Assembly: GCA_021129655.1 (NCBI GenBank)
Contig: JAJOLC010000043.1
Location: 1-38,177, forward strand
Direction: 5' to 3'
Length of the DNA stretch: 38,177 nt
Origin: Minisyncoccota bacterium
GTDB lineage: Bacteria; Patescibacteriota; Minisyncoccia; Phycocordibacterales; UBA918
Positions 7,482 through 37,489 of this stretch are shown here, in pieces. The notes under the pieces are model-generated. The model did not search any database. It was not told the origin of the DNA and saw nothing but the letters and a program-made list of their open reading frames with translations. Both the position numbers and the translations under genes were made by a program. Every line of letters starts with the position of its first letter. Position 1 is the first letter of the stretch.

Positions 7482-9494
7482 CTAGTTAACTAGAGTTACA
7501 ACGTCAGTTCGGTAGTCAGTAGCTGGTAGAAGTGTTTCTGTAACATCATCAGTGTTAGTAGCAGTTCCAGTTTCATCAAAGATGATTGAACCTAGAAGTA
7601 GACGAGCTGCAGCACCTGTTGATGTAGAGTCGAATGTTACTTGCAATGTGAGTGTTTCAGTTTCACCTTCGTTGATTTCGAAGAATCCACCATTTTCATC
7701 TGCAGTTGATGTAAGAACTGGAGTTGCTGTACCTGCTACAACACTTCCTGAACCGTCAACAATAGAGAATGAAGTTGATGAAGCGTAATCTGTTGAGATT
7801 CGCACATCTTGTTCGAACGCAGTTACTTCTACGTCGATTTCGAATGTAGCGTAATCATCACCAGCATTGTCACCAGTAGTTACAACAGCTGAAGTATCAG
7901 TTGTTTCTGTAACGATACCAGTAGTTCGCAATGTGTGAGCATCACCAGTAGCAGCACCTGAAAGTTGACTGTTACCTAGGTCATCAGCTCCTTCAGCATC
8001 AGCGATAGCTGTTGTTAGAGAGTCGATAGAACCTGCTACAGTAGCACCTTCATCACCTGGAGCTAGAGACTTGAATCGAAGCATCAATTGAGCTTCTACT
8101 CGGTCACCAGCATCGATAGTAACGTCTCCGTCAACATCGAATGTAAGTACAGCTTCGTTTCCTGTAGCAACAACAGTTACGTCGTCGATAGTTACACCAT
8201 CGATAACTAGTTCTGCGTCATCTACAAGAACAGTGTAAGTTGCTCCAGTTGTAGCAACGTTTACAACAAGAGTGTTTAGCTCAATGTCGTTCACTGAATC
8301 ATCAGTATCTAGGTCAAATGAGAATACATTGTACCAGTCTGACTTTTTGTCATCTTCAACTTGGAAAGTTGTAGAATCTGGGTCGTTTGATGAAGACTTA
8401 GCGATAAGCTCATCTTCGTTTCCTTCTTCGTCAATAGTGAATGCTTCACCAACTGAGTCTCCAAGGTCGTCTGTTGATTCCTCTGTTGATGCAACACCGT
8501 CAGCATCGAAGAATCGAAGAGCGTCGAACTCGATAGTCCAAGCTTCTCCATCATTAACACCGTCAAGGTTGTTTTGTAGAGTAGCTGCAACAACGATTTC
8601 TACTTCTTCATCTTCCATTGCGATGATGTCAAGACCAGAGAATCGGAGTGAACCGTTATCTTCGTCTAGGTAATCATCTTCGTCATCTGCATTCTCTTCA
8701 GCAACTTTGTCGCCGTCGATCCATAGAGAGATAGTTTCGAACACGTCCCAAGGGTCTTGCTCGTCACCTGTTCCTTCTAGAGCTAGGTCGATACGTGAGA
8801 TTTCAGCGTCACCATTTGAAAATTCAATAGTAACTTCTGCAATTTCAGCGTCTTCTGCACCTTCTTCTAGTTCATCATCTGAAGCAGAGTCAGTTTCGAA
8901 TGTGTCAAGGTCAGCTTCTCCTGATAGAGAAACAGAACCGTTGCCTTCTTCTTCACCTTCTTCTTCACCTTCTTCACCTTCTTCACCTTCTTCACCTTCT
9001 TCTTCAGCTGGAGCTGATACACATAGTGCATTAGCCTTAGCTAGTGAAGATGGTCCGAAGAATCCTGTTGGATTCACTAGATTTGCTGGTGAAAGAATAT
9101 CTGAACGATACTTCACTTGGAACTTAGATACAGCGGCTGCTGTAGCTGGTCCGTAGTAAGGAGTTTCTAGTCCAGCTGAACCTGCTCCTGATACTCCCAC
9201 TCGAGTGTCAGCGTCAGCGTTTAGGAATTCCTGAAGCTTCATAACATCAGCTCCTTCTGTTCCTGTTGATAGACTTCGTGTCCATGTGTATGGACATACA
9301 CTTGCTGTCATCATTGATTCACCACCACCAATTTGTGATTGTAGACCAGCGATTTGAGCTAGTAGGTCATTGATCATTTGCTGTAGGTCTTCAGAGCTTT
9401 GTGCCTGCGCTGCAGGAGCAAATGCTGAAACAACCATAGCAGCTGCTACGAAAGCTACTGCGAGCTTCGAAGCGAATTCTTTTGTAAGAGTCAT
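7482..9494 (-). CDS. Secreted, extremely acidic cell-surface protein with an N-terminal peptidoglycan-binding (PG_binding_1-like) domain
   Basis: The signal peptide is ...AFAPAAQAQS. The PG-binding-like segment is GADVMKLQEFLN...YYGPATAAAVSKFQ. This is followed by an (EEG)n linker and about 480 aa rich in D/E/T/V. Codon choice is visibly biased toward GGT/GCT/ACT/GAA/TTC/ATC compared with neighbouring genes. Confidence 0.7.
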   Translation of the reverse strand: MTLTKEFASKLAVAFVAAAMVVSAFAPAAQAQSSEDLQQMINDLLAQIAGLQSQIGGGESMMTASVCPYTWTRSLSTGTEGADVMKLQEFLNADADTRVGVSGAGSAGLETPYYGPATAAAVSKFQVKYRSDILSPANLVNPTGFFGPSSLAKANALCVSAPAEEEGEEGEEGEEGEEEGEEEGNGSVSLSGEADLDTFETDSASDDELEEGAEDAEIAEVTIEFSNGDAEISRIDLALEGTGDEQDPWDVFETISLWIDGDKVAEENADDEDDYLDEDNGSLRFSGLDIIAMEDEEVEIVVAATLQNNLDGVNDGEAWTIEFDALRFFDADGVASTEESTDDLGDSVGEAFTIDEEGNEDELIAKSSSNDPDSTTFQVEDDKKSDWYNVFSFDLDTDDSVNDIELNTLVVNVATTGATYTVLVDDAELVIDGVTIDDVTVVATGNEAVLTFDVDGDVTIDAGDRVEAQLMLRFKSLAPGDEGATVAGSIDSLTTAIADAEGADDLGNSQLSGAATGDAHTLRTTGIVTETTDTSAVVTTGDNAGDDYATFEIDVEVTAFEQDVRISTDYASSTSFSIVDGSGSVVAGTATPVLTSTADENGGFFEINEGETETLTLQVTFDSTSTGAAARLLLGSIIFDETGTATNTDDVTETLLPATDYRTDVVTLVN
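8943..9005 (-). repeat. Coding tandem repeat (GAAGAAGGT-type, 9-nt unit) encoding EEEGEEGEEGEEGEEEGEEEG
   Basis: Read directly as TTCACCTTC units on the + strand. Confidence 0.85.
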
Positions 9495-21703: not shown

Positions 21704-22525
21704 TCAAATTTTGTATAGGTTAGCTGCGTTTTTAAGTAGCTGTTCTCGCACTTCCTCCTCGTCAATATTCTTCATACTAGCGATTGTTTTGTACACTTGT
21801 TTGACCATCCAAGGCTCAGCTCTCTTGCCACGATATGGTGCTGGAGCTACAAAGGGGCAGTCAGTCTCGCCATGAATCATATCGAGTGGAGCATACTCAA
21901 CCAACTCTTGATAGGCAGCTTGAGCAAAAGTAATTACTCCCGTAAAGGAAATTGTGTACCCGATATCAAAGAAAGATTTTGCTTGTTCCTGCGTGCCCGC
22001 ATAGAAGTGAGCATTACCAAGAACCTTAGCTTCTGTCTTTAGAATTTCTGAAGCGTCATCGTAAGCATTTCTTCCCTGCCCATCTTTAGAATTACGCAGA
22101 TGCAGCATGAGCGGCTTGCCTACCTCATTAGCCAAAGCTACTTGCGCCACAAATACTTCACGCTGCTGTTCGTAAGTATCGTCGTTATTATGAAAATAAT
22201 CAAATCCACACTCCCCAATTCCTACTGCGCGACTATCCTCGGCCAGTTCTTTATAAAAATCGTAATCAAAACCAGCTTCTAATTCTTGCCCTTCTCTAGC
22301 CTTGTTATCACTCACTTCTACATTTATAGGGTGCAGGCCAACAATCGCCCAAGCATGCTCATATTTATGAGCTAGCTCAACCGCTAGTTTACTGTCTTTT
22401 CTGCCAGTACCTACAGTTATCATTCCCACATCTTCATCTGCACACTTTTTAAACACCTCATCTCTGTCGTCTGCGAACTTATACAGGTTGAGGTGTGAAT
22501 GAGTGTCTATGTAGCGAATATCCAT
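21704..22525 (-). CDS. tatD: TatD-family metal-dependent hydrolase (DNase)
   Basis: IDTHSHL, GECGFDY and the HLRN.. pattern are present. At 273 aa the length fits. Confidence 0.85.
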   Translation of the reverse strand: MDIRYIDTHSHLNLYKFADDRDEVFKKCADEDVGMITVGTGRKDSKLAVELAHKYEHAWAIVGLHPINVEVSDNKAREGQELEAGFDYDFYKELAEDSRAVGIGECGFDYFHNNDDTYEQQREVFVAQVALANEVGKPLMLHLRNSKDGQGRNAYDDASEILKTEAKVLGNAHFYAGTQEQAKSFFDIGYTISFTGVITFAQAAYQELVEYAPLDMIHGETDCPFVAPAPYRGKRAEPWMVKQVYKTIASMKNIDEEEVREQLLKNAANLYKI

Positions 22526-22528
22526 GAG

Positions 22529-23959
22529 CTATTTTTCTAATCGAGCAAATAAATTTTCGGGTTTTTTGTTCTCCTTAATCGCTTGCAGTATTGTTTCTGC
22601 CGTTTGAGGCATGAACACCACTAATGATTCGGCTATTTCTTGCAAATCCTTAACCAACTTTACAATCATTTCCTTGGCTTGTTCTGGCTCGGTCTTTATA
22701 ACCTTGAAGGGTTCATTCTCAGCAATATATTCATCCATAGCTCCAATCGCGGCCCAAATACCATCCATTACTGCCTGAAACTGATAATGCTTCAAAGCTT
22801 CTGCATCCATCGTAGTTTTGTCGGTCACAGTAACTGGTGACTCGAGGTGTGTTTCTGCCATCTTCATAATCCGAGCGGTCAAATTTCCAAGTCCATTTAC
22901 CAAGTTAGCAGTGTATACCTCGTCCATCTTTTCCCAAGTTAAATCAGAATCATCGACTGGGTGTACGTGACGCAGCATGATGTATCGAGTCGCGTCAGTG
23001 CCATATTTTTTCACCAATTCATACGGGTCAATAACATTGCCCAAGCTCTTACTCATTTTATGCCCCTCGCTATTGATAAAGCCGTGAATAAAAATAGTAT
23101 CAGTAGCTTTTAGGTTCACACTCTTTAGCATAGCCTGCCAGATAACGACTTGAAATCGTACCTGGTCTTTGCCGGCTAACTGCAAGGTTTCTCCCTGTTC
23201 CCAGAACTTAGAGAATTTTCCTTCGAAGTCCTTTGGCCAGCCTAAAGTAGAGATGTAGTTGGTAAGTGCATCAAACCACACGTACATTACATGGTTATCG
23301 TCGCCAGGCACTTCCACTCCCCAGTCCATTCGTGATTTCTCACGTGAAATACTCAAATCCTCTAGACCACCTTGGACAAATTTAAGAGCCTCCTGTCTTC
23401 TCCAGTTTGGCAAAACAGAACCTTCCTTAGATAAAAATTCTTCTAAGAAAGTTTGATATTTGGATAGCCTAAAAAAATAGTTTTCCTCCTCAACTCCTTC
23501 CGGTTCTGTTTTGTGGTCCGGGCATTTTCCTTCCACCAAGTCTGTATCTATTTTAAAAGCTTCACACCCCACACAATACAAGCCGGTGTATTTCTTTTTA
23601 TAAATATCTCCCGCAGCATCACATCGTCGCCACATTTCTTGAGCAGCCTCTTTGTGGGCGGTATCTGTAGTACGAATGAAGTTGTCGTAAGAAAGATTAA
23701 GGGCTGACTTTAGCTCTTTAACTTCGGATGCGTATTTATCTACATAATTCTGTCGAGATACACCTTCCTCATCAGCCTTACGCGATACCTTCTGTCCATG
23801 CTCATCCACACCCATATTGAAGAAAACATCTTCGTCCTGCAATCGCCAAAATCGAGCCAAGGTATCAGCCTGCACAAACTCAAGCGCATGACCCATGTGC
23901 GGGCTAGCATTTACGTACGGCAGTGTAGTTGTTATATATTTAGGTATCTTTTCACTCAT
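22529..23959 (-). CDS. metG: Methionyl-tRNA synthetase (short form, no C-terminal tRNA-binding domain)
   Basis: HIGH-type motif PHMGH, CxxC pairs (CVGC...CPDH) and KMSKS are present. Confidence 0.92.
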   Translation of the reverse strand: MSEKIPKYITTTLPYVNASPHMGHALEFVQADTLARFWRLQDEDVFFNMGVDEHGQKVSRKADEEGVSRQNYVDKYASEVKELKSALNLSYDNFIRTTDTAHKEAAQEMWRRCDAAGDIYKKKYTGLYCVGCEAFKIDTDLVEGKCPDHKTEPEGVEEENYFFRLSKYQTFLEEFLSKEGSVLPNWRRQEALKFVQGGLEDLSISREKSRMDWGVEVPGDDNHVMYVWFDALTNYISTLGWPKDFEGKFSKFWEQGETLQLAGKDQVRFQVVIWQAMLKSVNLKATDTIFIHGFINSEGHKMSKSLGNVIDPYELVKKYGTDATRYIMLRHVHPVDDSDLTWEKMDEVYTANLVNGLGNLTARIMKMAETHLESPVTVTDKTTMDAEALKHYQFQAVMDGIWAAIGAMDEYIAENEPFKVIKTEPEQAKEMIVKLVKDLQEIAESLVVFMPQTAETILQAIKENKKPENLFARLEK

Positions 23960-23965
23960 GTTTGT

Positions 23966-25357
23966 TTATTTAAGGTATTCAATCAAATCTGCAATAGCAA
24001 CTCTTTCCTGTTCTCCGGTGTCTCTATCCCTAACAGTTACAGTGTCCTTTAAGTCTGAATTTTCTTCTCCTAATGTTTCAAAATCTATAGTTACACAATG
24101 TGGTGTACCAATTTCATCTTGACGACGATATCGCTTTCCAACATTTCCATTGTCATCGAATTCAGCTCTCATTTCTTCAGCTACTAAAGAAAATACCTCC
24201 TCTGCTTTTGCAACTAAGTCTGGTTTGTTTTTCAACAATGGGAATACCGCCACCTTAATAGGAGCCAGTTTTTTAGGGAACCTCATAACAATCCTAGTGT
24301 CTCCGCCAAGTTCATCTTCATCATAAAACTCAGTCATAACAGCCAAAAATGTCCGGTCTAGTCCAACCGATGTTTCAACCACGTGAGGAATGTACTTTTC
24401 ATTATTTTTCTGGTCCAAATATTCCATTGATGTATCAGAGAATTTTTGGTGCTGAGTCAAGTCGTAGTCACCGCGAGCATGAACACCCTCTAATTCCTTA
24501 TAACCAAACGGGAAATTGTATTCTATGTCGAAGGCAGCTTTAGCGTAGAAAACTAAATTTTCGTGCTCATGCCAACGCAAATTTTCTGCCTTAAAACCTA
24601 AGTCTAAGTAGTATTGCATTCGTTTTTCTTTCCACTCTTCGAACTTTTCCATACCTGAATCAGGTGACACAAACATCTGCATTTCCATTTGTTCAAATTC
24701 GCGCTTCCTAAAGATATATTGACGAGGAGCAATTTCATTTCTAAACGCCTTACCAATTTGAGCAATACCAAACGGAATTTTCACCCTAGCGCTATCTAGC
24801 ACATTTTTATAGTTAATATAAATACCCTGACAGGTCTCGCCTCTTAAGTAAGAAGGGTCTTCATTCCAGTTATCACTAAAATTACCCAAGTTACTTTTAA
24901 CGAGTAGATTGAGAGCTTTTATTTCACCGAAATCCTTTTGACCGCATTTAGGACAAGTCAACTTGTCTCGATGACTATCAAATAGTTTGTTTATTTCTTC
25001 TTCTGACATTTTCTCATCGGCAAAAATATCCTTGTCTTCCAAAAGATGGTCAGCTCGGGATCGGGTGTGACACTCATTACACTCTACTAAGGGATCAGAA
25101 AAACCTCCAACATGTCCGCTAGCTTCCCAAACCTTAGGATGAGTAACGACTGCAGAGTCTAATCCAACAATATTCTTCTCTTTTTGAACCATTGATTTCC
25201 ACCAAACAGCTTTGATATTGTTTGCCAACTCTACTCCGTAAGGACCGTAATCATACGAACCCACAAAACCTCCATAAATTTCACTGCCTTGAAACACAAA
25301 ACCGCGCCGCTTAGACAAAGCAACAATCTTTTCCATCGTATCTGCAGATTTTTCCAT
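23966..25357 (-). CDS. glyQS: Glycyl-tRNA synthetase (class II, alpha2 type)
   Basis: The N-terminus is KRRGFVFQGSEIYGG. Class II motifs are present (FRNEIAPR, GLDR), along with a C-terminal anticodon-binding region. Confidence 0.92.
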   Translation of the reverse strand: MEKSADTMEKIVALSKRRGFVFQGSEIYGGFVGSYDYGPYGVELANNIKAVWWKSMVQKEKNIVGLDSAVVTHPKVWEASGHVGGFSDPLVECNECHTRSRADHLLEDKDIFADEKMSEEEINKLFDSHRDKLTCPKCGQKDFGEIKALNLLVKSNLGNFSDNWNEDPSYLRGETCQGIYINYKNVLDSARVKIPFGIAQIGKAFRNEIAPRQYIFRKREFEQMEMQMFVSPDSGMEKFEEWKEKRMQYYLDLGFKAENLRWHEHENLVFYAKAAFDIEYNFPFGYKELEGVHARGDYDLTQHQKFSDTSMEYLDQKNNEKYIPHVVETSVGLDRTFLAVMTEFYDEDELGGDTRIVMRFPKKLAPIKVAVFPLLKNKPDLVAKAEEVFSLVAEEMRAEFDDNGNVGKRYRRQDEIGTPHCVTIDFETLGEENSDLKDTVTVRDRDTGEQERVAIADLIEYLK

Positions 25358-25365
25358 ATTAATAT

Positions 25366-27282
25366 TTATCTAATCACTACTCCATTATCTATCTCATGCC
25401 CCATCTCTTCTGATAGTTCTGTTGTAACAGCCTCGTCTCCATCTTGCAAGAGCGCGTTAGTAAATCTATCATTAGCACGCACTTGTTGTCGATTAAGAAG
25501 GGTCACAACCTGACCAACCTGAGAGGTACTCGGTAAAATACTAACCTGAAATGACAAGTCTTTCCGCTGACCAGAAGAGATATCACCGATTGCCCACTGA
25601 ATCTTTTTTGATACTGAATTATAAGTAACCACTCCTTCAGTTTCATATGAATCTAGCCATGTTACATGTAGAGGCAAAGATGTTTCTACTATTGTATTAG
25701 CTAAATCATTGGCCCCAGCCGACACTCCCAAGGAAAGATTATAAACTGTTTCTTCACCCACCTGAGGGGGAACCGGACCGGAAACTAAACTAGCCTGACT
25801 TCCAACACCTACAGTTGAGGAGTATTTTGCTTCAGCTCTAATTGTTCCGATTAAGGTTTCTTGTGCACTACTCTCTGCTACTCTTCGTGCATATACATTT
25901 ACTACCATATCGAATGAAGCAGTGGTGAGCTCTGGCCCTTGATGTACCGCAAATTCTAACGAACGTGAACCTCCAGGCAGGATACGGTCAAATGTGGAAT
26001 TATTAGAAACTTCCCAGCGTACAGTTTCATTATTTGAGTCATAGAATCCGGAAGAGCTTTTAATTGAGTTTTCTGCTAAAGCATTTCCGTTCGGAATGAT
26101 TTCTACCACCATGTCGTAAACTGTCTCATCCAGAGTGTTAGTAATATCTACCCTAACGCTTGATACTTCGTCCTGCCCGATAATAACCTTACGATCTGTA
26201 TCTCCATTAATATCAATTGCCACATCAATGAAGGGTCTCTCAATTATAAAGTCAGCTTTTGCTTCGGCCAATGTCGCCCCAACACTGTTTTGATTGTCTG
26301 GACTAGATGGGCCGGCATTGAAGTTGATTCGGAAAGTTTCTTCAGTCAAGCCTGACACAATTCCTTGCAGCTTAATCACAGCAGTCTGCTCAGGTAGAAG
26401 CTCTTCAATTCGCCAAACATTTTGACCATAAACTGGTGTGGGTTCTGAGGTTTCATAAGTAAAGCCATTAGGATATGAAGCCTCAATCAAAACATCGTGC
26501 AGCGGTGAAGACGCATTTGATACCGCCGTCATTACAATTTCTACCAACTGGCCAGAGGCTACTTTTTCAATACTTTCAATTCTAAGGACTAACGGTGACG
26601 AGCTAATCCGAAGGGCGAACGCTTCAGCATTTTTATAGAACATGCCATTCGAGCCATTAATCCTATATTCAACCGTAGCCTCGATAGATTTTTCTGCATG
26701 CTCTTCTCCAAAAATAGCTACTTTAACCGGTATATTCTGCACTTCTCCCGGGGCAATGTCATCAATAGGAACCCTCTCTTCAAAGAGGTTTCTTGGAGAA
26801 TCGCCCACAGACCTTGTTCCTGTTGGATATTTCAGAATCAGAGTAACCGACTCCATCACTACTGAGTTTTCATTTGAAACAGCTACCTGCAAAGGCACAA
26901 CCTCCCCTCCTCCAATCGCAGACGGGCCCAGCACAGAAATATATATATTGTCATTTGAAATCTTGTTTCCTCCAAAATATAAGAAAAGGCTCGATAGCCC
27001 TACCACAAAAATAAATATCAGCAGACTGCCCAGAAGAATAAAACTTCGGTAGTGACGTTTGGGTTTTTCTTCTGAGGACTGTTCATTACCTCCCGCAGCA
27101 TCTATACCCGATCGTAAATCGTTAGTGTTTCCTTCATTTGAGGAATCTGGAACCCAAGTTTTTGATACTTCTACTGGGGTGTCTGAAAGCTTATGGCGAA
27201 CAGGCTTGCTGTTCGTGGCTCCACGTTGATATAAACGCTTACGCATAGCGTCAATCTGGTCTTGAGAATGAAGATTATTCAT
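25366..27282 (-). CDS. Hypothetical membrane-anchored protein with repeated beta-sandwich (CARDB/DUF11-like) modules
   Basis: 638 aa with one TM helix (SFILLGSLLIFIFVVGLSSLFLYF). Recurring ~90-aa segments follow the pattern G..V.l.V.v.N.s......V.l...yP.G. No catalytic motif was seen. Confidence 0.6.
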   Translation of the reverse strand: MNNLHSQDQIDAMRKRLYQRGATNSKPVRHKLSDTPVEVSKTWVPDSSNEGNTNDLRSGIDAAGGNEQSSEEKPKRHYRSFILLGSLLIFIFVVGLSSLFLYFGGNKISNDNIYISVLGPSAIGGGEVVPLQVAVSNENSVVMESVTLILKYPTGTRSVGDSPRNLFEERVPIDDIAPGEVQNIPVKVAIFGEEHAEKSIEATVEYRINGSNGMFYKNAEAFALRISSSPLVLRIESIEKVASGQLVEIVMTAVSNASSPLHDVLIEASYPNGFTYETSEPTPVYGQNVWRIEELLPEQTAVIKLQGIVSGLTEETFRINFNAGPSSPDNQNSVGATLAEAKADFIIERPFIDVAIDINGDTDRKVIIGQDEVSSVRVDITNTLDETVYDMVVEIIPNGNALAENSIKSSSGFYDSNNETVRWEVSNNSTFDRILPGGSRSLEFAVHQGPELTTASFDMVVNVYARRVAESSAQETLIGTIRAEAKYSSTVGVGSQASLVSGPVPPQVGEETVYNLSLGVSAGANDLANTIVETSLPLHVTWLDSYETEGVVTYNSVSKKIQWAIGDISSGQRKDLSFQVSILPSTSQVGQVVTLLNRQQVRANDRFTNALLQDGDEAVTTELSEEMGHEIDNGVVIR

Positions 27283-27303
27283 AATGTTTAGTATAACACT
27301 GGC

Positions 27304-27882
27304 TTATAAATGACTTATGGACACTGCGTGGGCATACAGGCTGTTTACCTGTTTTTCGATACCGCTAGTATACTGAGCTGCAATATCTGCTGGCCTAGAA
27401 CCTCTAATAGTTTCAGGCACTGACTTAGTGTCTACATAGCCCAAGTGCGCAAGAATTTGCACCTGAACAGTCGTTTGAATAAAGGGGCGTTCTTTACTAG
27501 CACTAGACAACTCATCAAATGCTGCCATTACGTAGTCAAACAATTCTGGAGCCGGCTCTTCCCCTTTCACGAACCGTCGCAACAAACGAGACAGGCTTAC
27601 TACGCTGCCGCGAGCTTCTTTGTCTATTGATTCGTGATAGTAGTTTTTTAATGCTTCGATACTACCAACTTTCCAACTCACTTTACCCTTTATCAAGGAC
27701 ACACGAACCAAGGAAAACTCTTGCAAAGCGTACCGCTGGCGAGACCTCTCTTCACGAGCACTCCTTGCATCGGCATATAGCATACCTGCTTCACGAGTGA
27801 ACATGAGATAAGAACGGTCTGCAGTATTTCGATTATACGTACCGCACACCAAAGCTTTTGTTGTGTACGTTGTATAAGCCAT
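27304..27882 (-). CDS. recO: DNA repair protein RecO (short form)
   Basis: The N-terminal OB-like pattern is ALVCGTYNRNTADRSYLMFTREAGMLYADARSAR...LQEFSLV. Its ATG overlaps the ileS stop (TAATG). The assignment is by pattern only. Confidence 0.6.
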   Translation of the reverse strand: MAYTTYTTKALVCGTYNRNTADRSYLMFTREAGMLYADARSAREERSRQRYALQEFSLVRVSLIKGKVSWKVGSIEALKNYYHESIDKEARGSVVSLSRLLRRFVKGEEPAPELFDYVMAAFDELSSASKERPFIQTTVQVQILAHLGYVDTKSVPETIRGSRPADIAAQYTSGIEKQVNSLYAHAVSISHL

Positions 27883-30800
27883 TAAACTTTACGAATTTCA
27901 AAACAGAAAGAAAACTCGCCGATTTTGACCAAATCTCCTTCAGCTTCACCAAAGCTGACTTTGCTTGCCCCGACTGTTTTAACCAGTAATTCCTGGTGAG
28001 TCTCTACCGCAGCTTGTCCAGCTTCATCAGTATCAATCGTTAATTCAATTTCATCATGTGGTTCAAGCTTTCCTGCTTTCCTCTTGCTTTGAATTGCTCG
28101 CATCAACTCGCGCACAGCCCCCTCTTCCAGCAGAGCTGGTGTCAGCTCAGTGTCTAACTCAACCAGACTGTCGGCCTTCTCTTGAATCACGACTTGCTTA
28201 ACATTGACCTCAGACATAATTATCTCAGCATAGTCATCAGCCAAGACGATTCCTGCCCCGACTGTTAGTTTGGCCAGAGGTTGTCGCACTTTGCTGCTAG
28301 CCTTGGTTCGTAACTCCAAAGCTGCCGTTACCACTTCGCGTGTCTGCTGCATAGCAGTTAACCAACCCACTTCAACCTCTCCTTTGTCAGGCCAGGCTGC
28401 CAAATGAACACTTTCTGCTTCAGAGTCTGTTCGCACTGCTCGCCATAGATATTCTGCATAAAACGGCATAGCTGGAGCCATCACCAAGGCTAGTGTTTTT
28501 AGAGTGTGACGCAAGGTGGCTAAAGCCAGTGTCTTGTCCTCCTGGTCCTCTCCTTTAATTCTGTCACGTGAACGCCGTAGATACCAGACAGACAAATCAT
28601 CGATAAATTCAGTTATTGGTCTGTTGGCCTTATCCAATTCATAATTCTCATAGCCATCTGTCGCATCATTTACCAACTCATTCAAACGAGTCAGTATCCA
28701 CTTATCAAGAACTTGGTCGGAATTAGATGAAGCTTCCGTTCCATCGGCAAACATTTCATACATAGCCAACACATTGTGTAGACGACCTATGTTCTTTCGT
28801 TGTATTTCCAGTACTTCTTTTTCAGAGAAATTCAGATCTTCTCCTTTAACTGCTGATGAAGAGAGCAGGTAGAAACGCATCGCGTCTGCCCCGACAGTAT
28901 CGGCCACCTCCATTGGGTCTGGGTAGTTCTGTAATGACTTACTCATCTTGACCCCTTCTTCAGTTAGGATTGTTCCATTAACAATCACATTTTCGTATGG
29001 AGACTTTCCGAACAAGGCTGTCCCAAGCACTATTAGTGAGTAGAACCACCCTCTAGTCTGGTCTAAACCTTCAGCAATAAACTTAGCCGGGAATCGTTTA
29101 GCATCCACTTCTTCTTTGTTTTCAAACGGATAGTGGTGTTGGGCATATGGCATCGAACCACTTTCAAACCAACAGTCAAAGACGTCTGGTACTCTTTCTA
29201 ATTTAGTCTCCCCTTCAAACAACTCTATATCGTCGATATATGGTCGGTGAAAATCTAGTTCGTAATTATCGTTATGAGGCATCACAGCGAACGATAATTC
29301 CCGTACTTCTGCATTTTTATAGTAAGAATTAAACACCTTTAAACTATCCTTCATAGTCAACCCCTTAGCTGCTGACTCAAGCATACAAAGAGGGTCACCA
29401 TGGGACACGATTAGAATTTTTTTGTCTCGGTATTTTTTCTCTATCTCATAAATAAATTCACCCATTCTAATTCGGGTTTGAAGCAAGCTTTCCATTCCTG
29501 ATTTACTGTTCAGATACTCATCTTCCGTAGATTCAAATACACTCTCCTTTCTGCCCGAAGAAGCACCTTCTAATTCTCCCATTCCTGACTCACGTAATCT
29601 ATCGTCTACAATGACCTGCTCGGGTAACAACCCAAGTTCTGCCGCCAACAAATCAGCGGATTCTTTCGTTCTTTGCAGTGGGGAAGTAAAAATGTAATCA
29701 GGCTTTACTGAAAAGTTTTCCGCGGCCTTCTTTACCTGCTCTTCTCCTTTTTCTGTTATCGGATTATCTATTCCTGTTTCTCCATTCAAAAACCCTTCCA
29801 CGTTTGATACAGATTCTCCATGTCGCATCACAAAATATTCATTACCACTCTTTGGTACAAATTCCTGCAGATCAGACAGTGAGCCGCACACTTTATACTC
29901 TTCTGTCTCGGGATTTCGCCAGATTGGAATTGGTGCACCCCAATACCGCTGCCGACTTACCGACCAATCACGCGCTCCTTCTAACCACTTACCAAACCGA
30001 TTGGTTCCAACGTGGTCGGGCACCCAATTAACTTTTCTATTAGCTTCAACTAAATCATCTTTTATTTTGGTAACCTCAACAAACCACGATGTTGTTGCGT
30101 AGTTCAAAAGTGGGGTTTCGCAGCGCCAGCAATGGGGATAGCTGTGAACGATGTTTTGCTTTTTCAAAACCTTTCCTGATGCTTGCAGGGCTTTTAAGAT
30201 TTCTATATCAGTGTCTTTGTGGTCTACCCCGGCCTCGTCATCGTCTTTTGGTTTAACCAGCTGACCAGCAAAAAGTTCAATGAAGTCCATAAAGTGACCC
30301 GTCGGGTCAACATGGTGAACAATTGGAACCTTATGTTCTTGCGCCAGTTTCATATCGTCATCTCCATAGGCTGGGGCAATATGTACGGCACCAGTCCCCT
30401 CTTCTCCAACCTCTACATAGTCAGCATGATAAATAGTCCAAGCTTTATCTTTATTCTCGAAGTCCTGTTCGGCTAAGTACGGAAATGGTGGAGTGTACTT
30501 TCTGCCTATTAAATCTGCTCCTTTAAACTCATCGACCACCTGATGTTCAAATCCTTCTAGCTGCACCAGTCTATCTTTGGCCAAAATTACAAAACTTTCC
30601 CCAGACTCTTCTGACAGCTTAGCTTTTACATAATCTAGTTCCTGATGCACAGCAGCGGCCATATTGCCGGGCATAGTCCAGGGGGTAGTTGTCCAAATAA
30701 GTAGTGACGTGTCTGTCTCATTTCCAGACTCATCTAATAATGGCAACTTAACTGTAATAGATATATCCTTGATATCCTTGTAATTAAGATTAACTTCAAA

Positions 30801-31418
30801 GTTAGATAACGTAGTTCCGCAGCGCGGACACATGTGCATACTTTTGAACCCTTCATAGACCAACCCTTTCTGGTGCAGAGACTTAAATACCCACCACACA
30901 CTCTCAGTGTAAGTACTATCCATGGTTCTATAATCATCTTCCATATCAACAAACCGTCCCATACGGGGAATAATTTTCTGCCAATCATCAGCGTATTCCA
31001 TTACTGAGTCTCTGGCAGATTCATTGAATTTCTTGACACCATAATCTTCAATATCAAGTTTTGTCGCCAAACCAAGCTTCTTCTCAATCAAGTTCTCAAC
31101 TGGTAGACCGTGACAGTCCCAACCCCACTTTCGTCGAACTCTATAACCGTTCATCGTCCAAAACCTTGGAACAGCATCCTTAATTGTGCCGGCTAAAATA
31201 TGACCATAGTGTGGGAGCCCAGTAGCAAATGGGGGCCCGTCATAAAATTCAAAATCACCCTTAGGTTCCCTACCGGCTGGGTTTTGTACGCTTTTATTAA
31301 AAATATCATGCTCTTCCCAAAAAGCCTGAATCGTTTCTTCCCGTTCTGCAACTTCCGACTTTTTGACCTCTTTTACGACTTCTACAGAGCCGTTTTCTCT
31401 ACCGTTTTGTTTAGACAT
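27882..31418 (-). CDS. ileS: Isoleucyl-tRNA synthetase (type 2-like) carrying an internal histidine-phosphatase domain
   Basis: HIGH motif PHYGH, editing domain WTTTPWTMPGN, WSVSRQRYWGAPIPIW, DCWFESGSMPYAQ and KMSKS are all present. The 1178-aa ORF is a single frame. Confidence 0.95.
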   Translation of the reverse strand: MSKQNGRENGSVEVVKEVKKSEVAEREETIQAFWEEHDIFNKSVQNPAGREPKGDFEFYDGPPFATGLPHYGHILAGTIKDAVPRFWTMNGYRVRRKWGWDCHGLPVENLIEKKLGLATKLDIEDYGVKKFNESARDSVMEYADDWQKIIPRMGRFVDMEDDYRTMDSTYTESVWWVFKSLHQKGLVYEGFKSMHMCPRCGTTLSNFEVNLNYKDIKDISITVKLPLLDESGNETDTSLLIWTTTPWTMPGNMAAAVHQELDYVKAKLSEESGESFVILAKDRLVQLEGFEHQVVDEFKGADLIGRKYTPPFPYLAEQDFENKDKAWTIYHADYVEVGEEGTGAVHIAPAYGDDDMKLAQEHKVPIVHHVDPTGHFMDFIELFAGQLVKPKDDDEAGVDHKDTDIEILKALQASGKVLKKQNIVHSYPHCWRCETPLLNYATTSWFVEVTKIKDDLVEANRKVNWVPDHVGTNRFGKWLEGARDWSVSRQRYWGAPIPIWRNPETEEYKVCGSLSDLQEFVPKSGNEYFVMRHGESVSNVEGFLNGETGIDNPITEKGEEQVKKAAENFSVKPDYIFTSPLQRTKESADLLAAELGLLPEQVIVDDRLRESGMGELEGASSGRKESVFESTEDEYLNSKSGMESLLQTRIRMGEFIYEIEKKYRDKKILIVSHGDPLCMLESAAKGLTMKDSLKVFNSYYKNAEVRELSFAVMPHNDNYELDFHRPYIDDIELFEGETKLERVPDVFDCWFESGSMPYAQHHYPFENKEEVDAKRFPAKFIAEGLDQTRGWFYSLIVLGTALFGKSPYENVIVNGTILTEEGVKMSKSLQNYPDPMEVADTVGADAMRFYLLSSSAVKGEDLNFSEKEVLEIQRKNIGRLHNVLAMYEMFADGTEASSNSDQVLDKWILTRLNELVNDATDGYENYELDKANRPITEFIDDLSVWYLRRSRDRIKGEDQEDKTLALATLRHTLKTLALVMAPAMPFYAEYLWRAVRTDSEAESVHLAAWPDKGEVEVGWLTAMQQTREVVTAALELRTKASSKVRQPLAKLTVGAGIVLADDYAEIIMSEVNVKQVVIQEKADSLVELDTELTPALLEEGAVRELMRAIQSKRKAGKLEPHDEIELTIDTDEAGQAAVETHQELLVKTVGASKVSFGEAEGDLVKIGEFSFCFEIRKV
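29283..29849 (-). other. Inserted histidine phosphatase superfamily (branch 1, PGM/PhoE/CobC-like) domain within ileS (about residues 527-712)
   Basis: The motifs occur in canonical order: VMRHGES, TSPLQRTKESA, DDRLRESGMGELEG and ILIVSHGD. The flanks are the IleRS segments ...PIPIWRNPETEEYKVCGSLSDLQEF and YELDFHRPYIDDIEL.... Confidence 0.75.
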
Positions 31419-31542
31419 AAAAATATTGTATGCATATCAGACATAATAATGCCCCTTTGGCATCGCCATTGGAAATACCCTTGGGGTGAAGCAACGTATC
31501 AGGCTGCTTTTGAATGGTAGCATGATTATTTAGTTTGAACAG

Positions 31543-31576
31543 AAAAACCGGACGTCTTTTTTGACATCCGGTTTTT
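31543..31576. terminator. Orphan bidirectional terminator-like hairpin in the ileS upstream gap
   Basis: AAAAACCGGACGTC-tttttt-GACATCCGGTTTTT (14-bp stem with one C.A mismatch, and A5/T5 arms). No convincing gene ends next to it. Confidence 0.5.
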
Positions 31577-32029
31577 TATAGGGAGCGAAATCTCCAATGA
31601 ACATAATCAACGATTCAGCACTGTCCTCTATATCTACCAAACCGGTGAGGGCCAGACAATTCTGTTTCGGAAACAAGTTCCTATAAATATGATTCTTGTA
31701 AGTCTTTTGTTGTGATAACACTAGCTTTTGCTTGTACAATCACCCATCCTTTACAGAAAATTTTTAATACCGGGACACATCTTGTATCATCAGTACCACT
31801 CCAATACAGAGCCTTTGTCTACTAAAAAATATAGCAGCCAGCATTTTTATGACCAGATGTAATACCCTGACGCGCGCAATTTTGTACGCATATTTATCTG
31901 TAAAATAACTAGCCTAGTGCGTCCATTATTACAAATATACATTTGTACCTCCATTCAACCACTGAATCTTTTTGTAAATTACCCTCAACAAGACCTCATG
32001 TCAAGGTTAGTTCTTATTCGATACTCTTA

Positions 32030-35278: not shown

Positions 35279-35944
35279 CTAATTTTTAATTACGTCTACC
35301 ACAGCCAAGTAAACATCCTGATGGATATCTTCTCGGGTACGCAGACTGCCGTCGGCAACACACAAGATTGGGCGCCAAACATTTAGTGACGCCACCAATG
35401 TTCGCGCGGACTGCTCGGTCATAGCCTGGTGGTCAGCGTCAGTTTCAGAAACATCTAAACCTTCTCTGTCTCTGTCACTACCCATCATGTCTTTTCTAGT
35501 CTCATAAGGAATCTCCAAATACAAAATTGAATCTGGGCGAGGCAACTCAAATACTCCATGCTCTATTTTATCCAACCAGACTAAAAATTCCTCTCGCTCA
35601 TCTTCATCAGTAAGCTTAGCTCCCTGATGTAGCATATTCGCACTAACATATCGATCGGCTACCACTATCTTCCCTTCATTCAACCATTGCTTAATTTGCT
35701 TTGAAGACTCAAATCTATCAGCTGCGTACAGAGTCGAAGTGATACGTGGATCAAGTTTCATAAAGTCACCACGTTTGCCATCTAGACATTCTCTAATCAA
35801 CTTTCCAAAGTGATTACTTTCGTACCGAGGAAAATCTATACTCTCCACCACATACCCTTCTGAACGCAGTCGCTCCACCAGCAATTTTGTCTGGGTCGCT
35901 TTCCCCGCTCCATCTGCTCCTTCAATAACTAAAAGTTTACTCAT
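35279..35944 (-). CDS. tmk: Thymidylate kinase
   Basis: The P-loop is LLVIEGADGAGKATQ, and the DRY-like motif is VADRYVSAN. The start is taken at MSKLLVIEG (ATG 35944) rather than the 20-codon-longer ORF. Confidence 0.85.
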   Translation of the reverse strand: MSKLLVIEGADGAGKATQTKLLVERLRSEGYVVESIDFPRYESNHFGKLIRECLDGKRGDFMKLDPRITSTLYAADRFESSKQIKQWLNEGKIVVADRYVSANMLHQGAKLTDEDEREEFLVWLDKIEHGVFELPRPDSILYLEIPYETRKDMMGSDRDREGLDVSETDADHQAMTEQSARTLVASLNVWRPILCVADGSLRTREDIHQDVYLAVVDVIKN

Positions 35945-36121
35945 TAGTATATTTTTATCACAAAGAATGTGTTCTTTAAGTCTATGTCGAGCAATCCCGG
36001 ACATTTAGCCCCTCTGCGACACAGCATAATGGGGTGGTCAATATATACAGCCATTAAAAACTGTTATCTTGGGTTTAGATTCGACTTGAATCAGTTCCTC
36101 ACAAACACAAAGGTTGATACA

Positions 36122-37489
36122 ATGAACGCAATGACAAATATTGAACAACTGAAACATCACACCACTCACTTAGACGGAGGAGGTAAAATTGTAATTCTGG
36201 ACTCGGGGGCAGTTCTGACAGCCGAAATGACTTCGATGCTTCAAGCTCTACACTCACGCTCTACTGGCGGTATCGACGCTCATCTACAAGTATTGGCTGA
36301 ACGCGGTGCTGACAAATTCATGAAAACCTACTACGTTGGCTATGGTCACAAATCTATCGGTGACTGTGGAGCCGCAGTGGTATTTATTGAAGGAGTTTCT
36401 ATGTTGGCAGCTAAAGCCATTCAAGACTCCCCTCTTTATAATGGACAAGAAGCATCAACTCGCTACATCCCTTTTGACCGGCAAGAAATCATCGACCCGG
36501 TTGGCACAGCTGCTAGTAACGCGATATTAGAAAACTGGCGACAGTTCTACTTGAACGCGGTAGAGGAAATGAAAGAAGAACTTCCAAATCGCTATCTAAT
36601 AGCCGATGGCGAAAAAGAGAGTGTTTACACCAATGCTATCCATGCTCGTGCCTTCGACATATGTCGAGGATTCTTGCCAGCTGGTACCAGCACTAATCTA
36701 GCTTGGACAACTACCCTTCGTCAATTTGCTGACCGCATCACTGTCTTGCGGCACCATCCACTAGCAGAAGTACGGGAGATCTCTGCCAAACTAGAGGACG
36801 CTATGATGGAAGTTTACGAAAACTCCTTTAGCAAAGAACGGTTTGATAAAACTGAAGCTTATCTTAGTGAAGCTGCTAAAAGCTACTACTATCACGACCC
36901 GGAGTCTCCTGAAATGGAACTAGTTCACGATGGGATAAACAAGGAGGGACTAAAGCCACACAACGGGCTTTTAAGTAACCGTCCGCCGATGACCGAACTA
37001 CCAAAATGGCTTGGTTCATACGGGGTAGCTAGCTTTGCTTGGACTTTAGATTTTGGCTCCTTTCGAGACGTTCAACGCCACCGGGCAGTTAGCCAGCGAA
37101 TGCCTCTCTTGACTGATGAAATTGGTTTTCATGAATGGTATCTAGACGAACTGACGGACTCGCTTAAAGCTAAGTCTTTAGAATTCATTGAGTCCCAACG
37201 GGTGGCGAGTGAAGGCTTGACTGATGAAGCTACAGCTAAGCAGTACTACTTGCCGATGGGTTACAAAATCAGCAACTTTCTTTCTGGAGACTTGCCAGCT
37301 TTAACCTACTTAGTAGAGTTGAGGTCTTCGAGCAAGGTTCATCCAACTCTAGCCCTTCAGGCGGAGAAGATGGCTAAGTTATTAGCAGAAAAGTATGGTG
37401 ACTTAGGTCTCAAACTTCACATCGGTGAAGTAACTGGTCGTTTTGATATCAACCGTGGCAAAGACACTATTACTCGAGTTGATGAGTAG
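36122..37489 (+). CDS. thyX: FAD-dependent thymidylate synthase ThyX family, long (apparently tandem Thy1) form
   Basis: GHKSIGDCGAAVVFIEGVS...QEASTRY parallels the ThyX core, but without RHR. An RHR signature (FRDVQRHRAVSQR) is found only at residues 319-321. Two ...LR......E.R...-type helices are present. The start is taken at MNAMTNIEQ (36122). Confidence 0.7.
   Translation: MNAMTNIEQLKHHTTHLDGGGKIVILDSGAVLTAEMTSMLQALHSRSTGGIDAHLQVLAERGADKFMKTYYVGYGHKSIGDCGAAVVFIEGVSMLAAKAIQDSPLYNGQEASTRYIPFDRQEIIDPVGTAASNAILENWRQFYLNAVEEMKEELPNRYLIADGEKESVYTNAIHARAFDICRGFLPAGTSTNLAWTTTLRQFADRITVLRHHPLAEVREISAKLEDAMMEVYENSFSKERFDKTEAYLSEAAKSYYYHDPESPEMELVHDGINKEGLKPHNGLLSNRPPMTELPKWLGSYGVASFAWTLDFGSFRDVQRHRAVSQRMPLLTDEIGFHEWYLDELTDSLKAKSLEFIESQRVASEGLTDEATAKQYYLPMGYKISNFLSGDLPALTYLVELRSSSKVHPTLALQAEKMAKLLAEKYGDLGLKLHIGEVTGRFDINRGKDTITRVDE

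Follow-up and report, generated by a model that had tools for sequence, protein, structure and literature searches.

A predicted histidine phosphatase nested in the CP3 subdomain of a type-2 isoleucyl-tRNA synthetase of CPR bacteria

The window, the whole stretch of 38,177 nucleotides analysed here, contains a single ileS gene, read on the reverse strand as one continuous frame of 1178 amino acids (aa) plus stop (Table 1); the earlier note had likewise reported neither a stop codon nor a frameshift. The product exceeded the cut-off of the NCBIfam ileS equivalog model TIGR00392 (862.8 bits against 621.4) in two stretches lying around an insert, and the Pfam match to tRNA-synt_1 (PF00133, E = 2e-138) was broken into two stretches by His_Phos_1. 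PF08264 and PF19302 matched aa 905–1048 and aa 1065–1177, respectively, editing-domain chains in the PDB aligned with aa 212–429, and alignment with the IleRS2 of Priestia megaterium (8c8v) gave E = 3e-205. The whole synthetase is collinear with the type-2 IleRSs 8c8v and 1ile (Thermus thermophilus), which belong to the mupirocin-resistant, eukaryote/archaea-like type. A full-length AF2 model matched 8c8v with a TM of 0.75 (normalised to the target), and the synthetase core is thus predicted to be undisturbed, as had been supposed before. Judged by sequence, the product is an intact type-2 (class Ia) IleRS with the HIGH and KMSKS signatures, the CP1 editing domain, the anticodon-binding domain and the type-2 C-terminal domains.

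The first part of the synthetase comprises the first Rossmann half, the CP core, the CP1 editing domain, CP2 and the beginning of CP3, and the second part comprises the second Rossmann half, the stem-contact fold, the anticodon-binding domain and the type-2 C-terminal domains. Among 119 homologs, the editing motif WTTTPWT was unchanged throughout. In the HIGH signature P69, H70, G72 and H73 were invariant and Y71 was conserved in at least 90%; in KMSKS, K824, S826 and K827 were invariant and M825 reached at least 90%, while S828 fell into neither class. Every IleRS and phosphatase motif quoted in the earlier note was located in the translation, including WSVSRQRYWGAPIPIW at aa 485–500 and DCWFESGSMPYAQ at aa 748–760. 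No tRNA gene or Rfam family was found within the window.

Table 1. Features of the ileS gene and its nested domain (positions in the window; residues of the ileS product)
Feature	Position	Strand	Basis
ileS ORF, type-2 IleRS with nested phosphatase	27882..31418	(-)	TIGR00392; PF00133, PF08264, PF19302
IleRS N-terminal part, aa 1-519	29862..31418	(-)	8c8v chain 3-476; PF00133 aa 30-519
HIGH signature PHYGH, aa 69-73	31200..31214	(-)	translation
CP1 editing motif WTTTPWT, aa 242-248	30675..30695	(-)	translation
CP3 N-arm, aa 500-523, WRNPETEEYKVCGSLSDLQEFVPK	29850..29921	(-)	comparison with relatives; translation; CP3 per PMC7191050
Nested histidine-phosphatase domain, aa 524-716	29271..29849	(-)	PF00300; Pfam envelope aa 529-709 = 29292-29834
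Arg532-His533, RHG motif; His533 predicted phospho-accepting nucleophile	29820..29825	(-)	
Asn539, phosphate pocket	29802..29804	(-)	
Arg583, SPLQRT motif, phosphate pocket	29670..29672	(-)	
Glu610, predicted general acid/base	29589..29591	(-)	
His673, SHG motif, second catalytic His	29400..29402	(-)	
CP3 C-arm, aa 717-747, DNYELDFHRPYIDDIELFEGETKLERVPDVF	29178..29270	(-)	alignment to 8c8v and relatives
IleRS C-terminal part, aa 717-1178	27885..29270	(-)	8c8v residues 482-1021; PF08264, PF19302
KMSKS signature, aa 824-828	28935..28949	(-)	translation

The earlier note had claimed a complete histidine phosphatase (HP) inside this collinear IleRS, at 29283–29849 (aa 524–712). Our analysis confirmed a complete, in-frame branch-1 HP domain at aa ~520–716: the search against PF00300 gave E = 6e-31 and 108.1 bits (cut-off 21.7) at aa 529–709, covering profile positions 2–180 of 194. 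The translation carries RHGES at aa 532–536, SPLQRTKES at aa 579–587, RLRESGMGELEG at aa 607–618, which includes Glu610, and LIVSHGD at aa 669–675. The AF2 model of the isolated domain had a pLDDT of 95.8, and its top Foldseek matches were histidine phosphatases throughout, the best being iPSP1 (4ij6; TM 0.82, 25% identity). The score, the catalytic core and the modelled alpha/beta fold all place the insert in branch 1 of the PF00300 superfamily; it is ~195 aa long and of the short PhoE/PspA/CobC-like type.

The insert with its PF00300 match was present in all 120 of the closest database homologs (63–72% identity), which were drawn from independent ENA, JGI, NCBI and Logan assemblies with contigs of up to 1.05 Mb. 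A near-identical twin, with 2 aa differences, lies on an independent ENA contig. These observations, together with the continuous frame and the lack of a sharp break in GC content across the insert, leave a practically negligible chance that an assembly chimera or a frameshift fused a phosphatase gene to ileS. At least six insert-bearing loci were among the matches listed when the junction-spanning alignment was compared with genome contigs; the matches listed were mostly LeuRS/ValRS of unrelated bacteria, obtained through the generic RQRYWGAP pattern. A wider search yielded 383 HP-domain representatives at E<1e-30, and IleRS- or ValRS-like flanks were present in 111 of the best 150 of these. 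On this sequence evidence a nested HP is the rule across a large CPR clade, and hundreds of related genomes have one. When IleRS cores were placed in a rough NJ tree, the insert-less CPR IleRSs fell among the insert-bearing ones, with very short internal branches. The earlier note knew of no described IleRS of this architecture, and this stands, since no description of an HP nested in IleRS, or of a function for it, was found among 8.3 million full texts; the insert is not, however, peculiar to one genome. The nested HP is already in public protein databases, unremarked.

The predicted catalytic residues are strictly conserved. R532, H533, N539, R583, E610, E643, R651 and H673 were invariant in the 120 homologs; the two histidines His533 and His673, on which the earlier claim of activity had been made to depend, are thus kept. 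In the wider set, Arg532 and His533 were retained in every context wherever the copies cover both columns, and Arg583 was likewise retained. A single copy had neither Glu nor Asp at position 610, His673 was replaced by Tyr in one fragment, and Asn539 was replaced by I, Q, H or A in about ten of ~300 copies. The eight-residue pattern was intact in 197 of 203 copies at CP3, and two of about 23 second-site, tandem and ValRS copies deviated from it. Free-standing orthologs have catalytic residues identical to those of the nested HP. The insert is therefore apparently a catalytically competent phosphatase, as predicted from these residues. Elsewhere it varies: the substrate-pocket and cap regions were poorly conserved in the 120 homologs, and mean pairwise identity was 42% for the insert against 77% for the synthetase core.

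The ileS product aligned with chain residues 3–476 of 8c8v over aa 17–519 and with residues 482–859 over aa 717–1088, and ~197 residues replace ~5 of the solved IleRS2. The site lies in the CP3 subdomain as previously defined (PMC7191050), the root residues of which adjoin the active site (PMC12077802). The site is more than the short linker described in the earlier note: the subdomain forms a Cys4 zinc knuckle in Thermus IleRS and in insert-less CPR relatives. The N-arm and the C-arm of CP3 (Table 1) correspond to the places of the first CxxC and the second Cys pair of the knuckle in the insert-less relatives; the first pair, and with it the Cys4 zinc motif of the Thermus enzyme, is absent here. 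Comparison with relatives suggests that the insert is located at the tip of the former knuckle. Residues at the junctions (N526; P714, H715 and N716) were conserved, and the full-length AF2 model had a pLDDT of at least 89 across both connections of the HP. Because His-Asn is invariant at the C-terminal junction, an intein was considered, but it was rejected: the fold is that of HP instead of HINT, and the +1 residue is Asp717. In P. megaterium IleRS2, H715 has its counterpart in H480, a native residue of CP3, and therefore the His-Asn belongs to CP3.

Both Cys pairs were lost in 134 of 137 IleRSs with an HP in CP3 and kept in insert-less relatives. This would be expected if a pseudo-enzyme HP had taken over the stabilising role of the lost zinc knuckle. 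We consider such a structural replacement very improbable, however, as the full catalytic set is invariant while the remaining domain drifts, free-standing orthologs share the catalytic residues, and two IleRSs retain the zinc knuckle alongside the HP.

None of the NCBIfam equivalog cut-offs was reached by the HP domain. The best match was NF038349, the archaeal-type dPGM (92.8 bits against 225), followed by NF005567 (RNase H/acid phosphatase; 74 bits against 326). The scores were 68.6 bits for CobC (TIGR03162; cut-off 162.9), 55.5 for PspA (NF045917; 350), although 4ij6 was the best structural match, 28.1 for dPGM (TIGR01258; 81.7), 20.4 for SixA (TIGR00249; 74.5) and at most 38 for the remaining gpmA models (305–409). 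The best structural matches were all small-molecule phosphatases: iPSP1 4ij6, GpgP Rv2419c, the riboflavin-pathway enzyme 9mmh, CobC and PhoE. In dPGM, the second phosphate or carboxylate is bound by Arg90, Tyr92, Arg116/117 and Asn186 (E. coli numbering). When these residues were mapped by motif rather than by structure superposition, aa 611–613 (after E610) and aa 675 (after H673-G674) were variable, with the commonest residue at 25–35%, and an RR pair was absent from aa 625–645 in the 120-homolog alignment. Long dPGMs matched only the N-terminal half of the HP profile, while the short S. pombe dPGM 1fzt aligned across almost the whole of it. Phosphoglycerate mutase is disfavoured by the sub-cut-off scores and by the mutase-specific positions that are variable or absent.

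These matches bear on the possibility that the HP is an independent metabolic enzyme, captured from an adjacent operon position into a permissive loop of a gene that is essential and constitutively expressed, and having no mechanistic link to aminoacylation. A missing phosphoglycerate mutase, a metal-independent phosphoserine phosphatase and a general sugar/nucleotide phosphatase would be candidate roles, and the ranking of NF038349 in NCBIfam and of iPSP1 and PhoE in the PDB, as well as the alignment of 1fzt, is in keeping with them. The domain is acidic (mean net charge -6.3), as expected of a soluble metabolic enzyme, and CP3 is probably permissive because it is structurally variable among IleRSs. 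Moreover, PGM was not recovered in several shallow Parcubacteria clades (Jaffe et al. 2020; PMC7304191). On the other hand, the NF038349, TIGR01258 and PspA scores are far under the cut-offs, the mutase-specific positions and the half-length matches of long dPGMs speak against a mutase, and at least one complete Gracilibacteria genome has been reported without any glycolysis. A bystander would also not be expected to be the only family seen as an insert at the CP3 site, or to be nested as repeatedly as described below. We therefore regard capture of an uncoupled enzyme as possible but on the unlikely side. If it is correct, it shows that streamlined genomes can store an enzyme within an essential gene, and it may explain the PGM or phosphatase reported missing in Parcubacteria reconstructions.

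Further copies of the HP were found in the same and in a second synthetase. Some IleRSs have two HP domains, either in tandem or at two further loops, and the additional sites B (~aa 762–775) and C (~aa 875–900) flank the KMSKS loop in sequence. Among the best 120 ValRS relatives of P0227, 73 carried one to three HP domains; the ValRSs with HP domains belong to Gracilibacteria/Peregrinibacteria. Most of these HPs are at the CP3 position, beginning ~17 aa past RQxxWG and finishing ~85 aa short of KMSKS, and in a rough NJ tree they formed a clade separate from the IleRS HPs. In one Peregrinibacteria genome, no HP gene adjoined the insert-less valS. It is this recurrence that argues against a bystander: the HP is nested in IleRS at three different sites, can form tandems, reaches three or four copies and has also entered the equivalent CP3 of ValRS independently.

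The position of sites B and C, and of the CP3 roots beside the active site, raises the possibility of a cis-acting protein phosphatase that undoes inhibitory phosphorylation of the synthetase, for example on the KMSKS loop by HipA-like kinases. The superfamily includes the protein phosphatases PGAM5, Sts-1 and SixA, the KMSKS-type motif in GltX and TrpS is a target of the kinases HipA and HipT, and a weakly conserved substrate cap fits recognition of a phosphate on a presented loop. However, near-universal vertical conservation in a large clade resembles housekeeping rather than conflict, several diverged tandem copies would be needless for a cis function, and no kinase partner was present in the neighbourhoods inspected. 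In addition, no PADLOC defence family matched the window domain. Self-protection of this kind is distinctly improbable in our judgement.

Since two tRNA-charging enzymes bear the HP on their catalytic body, and the HP also occurs in an operon with argS and ileS (see below), it could also strip a 2'/3'-phosphate or a toxin-added pyrophosphate from the CCA end of the bound tRNA, restoring a chargeable A76. Some RelA/SpoT-type toxins add pyrophosphate to the CCA end of tRNA, and a phosphatase domain for end repair is present in bacterial CCA-adding enzymes; we take both as a lead only. Such end-healing is improbable, because the close structural relatives are all small-molecule enzymes, the domain is acidic, general tRNA repair is not expected to be restricted to IleRS and ValRS, and PADLOC gave, besides the negative result for the window domain, a single marginal match for the free-standing protein P0171 (E = 4.6e-4, 18 bits). 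The paper on the yeast IleRS-tRNA structure names CP3 only once, without counting it among the tRNA contacts.

The closest free-standing relatives of the HP adjoin ileS in five of six informative contigs; P0190 was left out of this count, as its contig is too short. P0171, P0214, P0220 and P0258 immediately precede ileS, with gaps of 1, 9, 1 and 10 nt, and three of the four are in the order argS-HP-ileS. The ileS gene was demonstrated to be insert-less for three of the four, and the contig of P0258 ends before CP3 can be read. P0210 adjoins an insert-less ileS on the opposite strand, and no ileS is visible alongside P0135. In total, argS was upstream in four of the five contigs with an HP beside ileS. 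In a rough NJ tree, the operonic HPs were placed within or beside the CP3-nested HPs. The fusion and the gene neighbourhood together point to a functional partnership of HP and IleRS, as predicted from gene context. The upstream ORF of the insert-bearing loci L003 and L006 was read by eye as argS. A tandem free-standing HP protein, P0241, lies in an unrelated, non-CPR-like neighbourhood, and the tandem free-standing HPs are therefore considered generic relatives.

We favor, as the probable explanation, a working type-2 IleRS with a competent HP nested in CP3, derived by fusion from an earlier partnership of two genes and functionally coupled to the synthetase. The ancestral form would be an orthologous HP gene 1–10 nt upstream of an insert-less ileS (argS-HP-ileS), as in related CPR. 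The synthetase would charge tRNA-Ile as normal. In the phosphatase, His533 would accept the phosphoryl group while Arg532, Arg583, Asn539 and His673 grip the phosphate, and Glu610 would protonate the leaving group, after which Pi would be released. Because the connections are short, conserved and confidently modelled, the phosphatase may act beside the catalytic body, and the two activities may be coupled beyond mere co-expression. Our best guess at the substrate is a small phosphomonoester related to nucleotides or amino acids, accepted with loose specificity; we think that tRNA as a substrate and phosphoglycerate isomerisation are less likely. Against this explanation, no curated cut-off was reached, the pocket regions are poorly conserved, P0135 has no visible ileS, and the insert-less valS of one Peregrinibacteria genome lacks an HP neighbour; furthermore, streamlined genomes can yield fusion or operon linkage without a mechanistic link.

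A bolder reading, which we hold to be unlikely, is a previously unrecognised translation-associated phosphatase of CPR bacteria that acts on the aminoacylation machinery itself. On two or more separate occasions it would have entered the CP3 of a class Ia synthetase, namely that of IleRS in Paceibacteria and their relatives and that of ValRS in Gracilibacteria/Peregrinibacteria. Such an enzyme could, for example, free the acceptor end of the tRNA, or the catalytic loop of the synthetase, of phosphate or pyrophosphate, or it could rid the active site of a phosphorylated inhibitor. If so, it would be a second built-in quality-control or repair module beside CP1 editing.

Few enzymes have been studied as thoroughly as the aminoacyl-tRNA synthetases. 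To our knowledge, nested catalytic domains in their core are very rare apart from CP1 editing, and we know of no aminoacylation or editing step that needs a phosphomonoesterase. Three kinds of tie link the HP to IleRS, namely nesting in the protein, duplication in some relatives and, in others, a gene of its own next to ileS. This pattern, with the same loop used in ValRS, is a strong comparative-genomics sign of a functional link. If the two are coupled, it points to new chemistry around tRNA charging in CPR, a radiation that reportedly accounts for over 15% of bacterial diversity.

Compared with 8c8v and 1ile, the IleRS of the window differs in having ~197 extra residues, which form a second enzyme in CP3. 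The short HPs Hydrogenobacter iPSP1/PspA (4ij5), Bacillus PhoE (1ebb/1h2e), CobC, mycobacterial GpgP and HFP (9mmh) have the same fold (TM 0.76–0.82), size and Arg-His/Arg/Glu/His set as the insert. In contrast, the insert is only 20–26% identical to them and misses their cut-offs. The known short HPs are also free-standing, unlike this domain with its class Ia synthetase partner, which either encloses it or shares an operon with it. The CP1 editing domain of IleRS, ValRS and LeuRS is likewise a hydrolase nested in the class Ia Rossmann fold beside aminoacylation; however, CP1 is universal and is an ancient ester hydrolase acting on mischarged tRNA, while the nested HP is lineage-specific, with predicted phospho-histidine chemistry. 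The Rv2228c-type RNase H/acid phosphatase (NF005567) also joins a CobC/PhoE-like HP to a nucleic-acid-processing enzyme, but as an end-to-end fusion with another partner, not as a nested domain. Among curated families, NF040702 (ileS_w_GNAT) provides a precedent for an IleRS polypeptide that carries a foreign enzyme domain within it; against this model the window protein scored 317.4 bits (cut-off 1999); there the domain is GNAT rather than HP, and the offsets of the partial profile match place it within the CP1 region.

The ileS gene of the window encodes an uninterrupted protein of 1178 aa in which a branch-1 histidine phosphatase (HP) domain is nested in a type-2 isoleucyl-tRNA synthetase (IleRS); this observation is solid. 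Two stretches of Pfam tRNA-synt_1 (E=2e-138) flank His_Phos_1 (PF00300; aa 529-709; E=6e-31, 108 bits, cut-off 21.7; spanning 2-180 of the 194 profile positions), with further matches to Anticodon_1 and DUF5915, and the protein scored 862.8 bits against the NCBIfam ileS equivalog (cut-off 621.4). Alignment with the solved P. megaterium IleRS2 (8c8v) was collinear on either side of the insert (aa 17-519 with chain residues 3-476, and aa 717-1088 with 482-859), so that about 197 residues replace about 5 of the solved enzyme. GC content showed no discontinuity at the insert. The earlier note had proposed such an in-frame domain at 29283-29849, which is aa 524-712 on translation; the domain search, the continuous frame and the alignment bear this out, and all the motifs that it quoted lie in the translated ORF where it placed them. 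Our results show that two complete enzymes share one polypeptide, joined by short conserved connections.

The architecture is neither an artefact nor rare. A homolog search of a 5.8-billion-protein collection returned, as its best 120 matches, proteins of 1123-1214 aa with 63-72% identity to the query, every one carrying PF00300 together with IleRS domains. They came from assemblies of ENA, JGI, NCBI and Logan and lay on contigs of up to 1.05 Mb, and the named sources were Candidatus Paceibacteria, Kaiserbacteria, Parcubacteria and Pacebacteria; a near-twin on an independent ENA contig differed from the window protein at 2 residues. A profile built from 30 insert sequences gave 383 matches at E<1e-30 among 1.84 billion cluster representatives. 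The best 150 of these, sorted by local HMMs for the N-part of IleRS, the insert and the C-part, comprised IleRS, whole or fragmentary, with one HP (91), synthetases with two HP domains (11: ten IleRS and the valyl-tRNA synthetase (ValRS) P0227), HP with only weak synthetase flanks (9, ValRS P0121 among them), single HP without a synthetase flank (31) and two or more HP matches without such a flank (8). Among the matches listed in a scan of species-representative genomes, insert-bearing ileS also occurred in genomes labelled Taylorbacteria, Falkowbacteria or generic CPR.

The insert belongs to branch 1 of the histidine phosphatases and to none of that branch's characterised equivalogs; the HP domain reached no curated NCBIfam equivalog cut-off. 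Mean pairwise identity among the 120 homologs was 42% in the insert versus 77-78% in the catalytic-core halves; despite this drift, R532, H533, N539, R583, E610, E643, R651 and H673 were invariant, including the RHG and SHG histidines (H533 and H673) that the earlier note had taken as signs of an intact catalytic site. When this eight-residue pattern was scored across all 303 HP segments collected, it was kept in 197 of 203 CP3 copies (CP3 being the connective subdomain that holds the insert), in almost all copies at second sites, in tandem or in ValRS, and in 27 of 34 free-standing copies; the copies that departed from it were truncated, or mostly showed N539 changes or Glu-to-Asp replacements. 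The isolated domain was modelled with a pLDDT of 95.8 and a pTM of 0.92, and its best structural matches were all small-molecule phosphatases: Hydrogenobacter phosphoserine phosphatase iPSP1 (TM 0.82), mycobacterial glucosyl-3-phosphoglycerate phosphatase, the riboflavin-pathway histidine phosphatase 9mmh, CobC, PhoE and TIGAR. A sequence-profile search ranked its relatives as the structure search did. From sequence and model, the domain is predicted to be a catalytically active, PhoE/PspA/CobC-type phosphomonoesterase. It is probably not a mutase: the sites that match the mutase-specific dPGM residues by motif vary in HP. Long dPGMs matched the N-terminal half of the profile only, and the short S. 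pombe dPGM aligned throughout.

By the limits of CP3 in the C. albicans IleRS (residues 473-534), where it links CP2 with the second Rossmann-fold half (PMC7191050), the insertion site lies inside CP3. The topology of this subdomain varies between IleRS structures, and that of Thermus carries a zinc motif (PMC7191050); network analysis of PfIleRS places CP3 root residues beside the active site (PMC12077802). The insert-less IleRS of L081, a CPR contig, has a CxxC...CxC zinc knuckle exactly where the insert sits, and both CP3 Cys pairs are gone in 134 of 137 IleRS with HP in CP3. Two IleRS, P0148 and P0245, keep both pairs alongside HP and may represent an intermediate state. The junction residues N526, P714, H715 and N716 were invariant or nearly so in the 120 homologs, and H715 and N716 align to the native CP3 of P. 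megaterium IleRS2. The full-length AF2 model (mean pLDDT 81, pTM 0.66; 89-97 across the insert and both connections) superposed on IleRS2 with a TM of 0.75; on this confidence and superposition we predict an intact synthetase, in line with the undisturbed core expected earlier.

Further copies of the domain occupy other sites and another host. P0152 (1468 aa) has two HP in tandem in CP3, P0170 has one in CP3 and one in the loop where the anticodon-binding domain begins, and P0162 and P0175 have theirs in the latter loop and in the loop after the DCWFESGSMPYAQ segment, with CP3 remaining an intact zinc knuckle (the Cys check covers P0162). The two non-CP3 loops correspond to window aa ~762-775 and ~875-900. 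Two-HP IleRS also include P0223 and P0138; the main catalytic residues were kept in all copies of this group, one P0138 copy being substituted at two accessory positions. P0227 (1538 aa), which JGI names valyl-tRNA synthetase, and P0121, with at least three HP domains, match valS models. One to three HP domains were present in 73 of the best 120 relatives of P0227 (ValRS set: P0227, P0121 and P0273-P0390), and the HP-bearing ones, where named, were Peregrinibacteria or Gracilibacteria. Most ValRS HPs start ~17 aa past RQxxWG and end ~85 aa before KMSKS, the CP3-equivalent position. Since they form a clade of their own in a rough tree, these sequences suggest that HP was recruited independently to the corresponding loop of ValRS, the paralog of IleRS.

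The free-standing proteins most like the insert, which scored 160-190 bits with the insert HMM, were examined in their own contigs (see table). HP adjoined ileS in five of six informative contigs, all five being related CPR contigs in which it is a separate gene of 188-195 aa; in four, a gap of 1-10 nt separates it from the downstream ileS, which was shown to lack the insert in three of those four. An argS gene stands upstream in four of the five. In the insert-bearing contigs L003 and L006, the ORF directly upstream of ileS reads, by eye, as argS. The synteny downstream of ileS in L081 is that of the window, and the operonic HPs branched within or beside the CP3-nested ones in a rough NJ tree. 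Judged by these comparisons, the partnership of HP with ileS appears to be older than the fusion. That the two are fused in some genomes and closely adjacent in others is a classic sign of a functional link. Our analysis shows that HP is evolutionarily tied to ileS and, in parallel, to valS.

The main rival reading is that HP is an independent metabolic phosphatase or mutase merely housed in the synthetase. Several shallow Parcubacteria clades are reported to have yielded no PGM (PMC7304191), which lends this reading some weight; however, it leaves unexplained the repeated, multi-copy nesting of one family in two synthetases. In the favored reading, in which the two activities are linked, the synthetase would aminoacylate normally, and HP, working beside its catalytic body, would accept a phosphoryl group on His533, Glu610 serving as the acid, and then hydrolyse the phospho-enzyme. 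We favor a small phosphomonoester as the substrate, because the close structural relatives of HP all have small-molecule substrates, the domain itself is acidic, its cap regions are variable, and tandem copies have diverged from each other. End-healing of tRNA and cis-dephosphorylation of the synthetase are possible alternatives.

A full-text literature search turned up no account of a histidine phosphatase within an IleRS or ValRS, in agreement with the earlier note, which knew of no described IleRS so built; public databases already include HP-bearing sequences, labelled generically, for example as "class I tRNA ligase family protein". The nearest architectural precedents include the CP1 editing domain, the NCBIfam family NF040702 ("ileS with GNAT domain"), of which the window protein is not a member (317 bits versus 1999), and RNase H/acid phosphatase, which is an end-to-end fusion.

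The remaining window genes (recO, proS-like, metG, tatD, glyA, dut, tmk, thyX, recA, ftsK, efp, ssb, rpsF and rplJ) are an ordinary housekeeping set of a small genome; no tRNA genes or Rfam families were found within the window. The order ileS-recO-DUF11-proS is common to the window and L081, which has one extra small ORF after ileS. In split-gene relatives, and seemingly in some of those with the insert, argS abuts ileS, which it does not do in the window. In this otherwise housekeeping region, the Y1 transposase ORF might be either a mobile element or a copy that has been domesticated.

Coordinates of features in the window and in contigs of related proteins
Sequence	Positions (strand)	Feature	Details
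Window	3565-6099 (-)	844-aa protein	LCAT/PGAP1-like lipase domain
Window	6642-7316 (-)	224-aa ORF	IS200-like Y1 transposase domain, E=4e-8
Window	7482-9494 (-)	670-aa ORF	No Pfam match
Window	21704-31418 (-)	Same-strand translation/repair block	ileS, recO (192 aa), 638-aa DUF11 surface-type protein, class II synthetase (proS-like, 463 aa), short MetRS (476 aa), tatD
Window	27882..31418 (-)	ileS	
Window	31419-32029	~600 nt upstream of ileS	No ORF >=90 aa on ileS strand
Window	35279-36004 (-)	tmk	Divergent; start overlaps that of thyX
Window	35969-37489 (+)	thyX, 506-aa ORF	GTG start; ThyX (Thy1) sole domain, aa 103-282; ~2x usual ThyX length
L081	6001-9367	P0171	argS, HP (189 aa), 1-nt gap, ileS (931 aa, insert-less), 154-aa ORF, recO, DUF11-like, proS-like
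L083	5001-8471	P0214	argS, HP, ileS (962 aa, insert-less)
L085		P0135	HP not adjoining ileS
L086	581-3866	P0210	argS C-terminus, HP, then insert-less ileS on opposite strand
L087	2120-5663	P0220	argS, HP, 1-nt gap, ileS (984 aa, insert-less), 100-aa ORF, recO
L089	4001-5132	P0258	HP, 10-nt gap, ileS N-terminus (contig end)
L090		P0190	Contig too short for neighbourhood
L093	162-596	PemK/MazF-type toxin gene	~100 nt upstream of two-HP ValRS gene P0227
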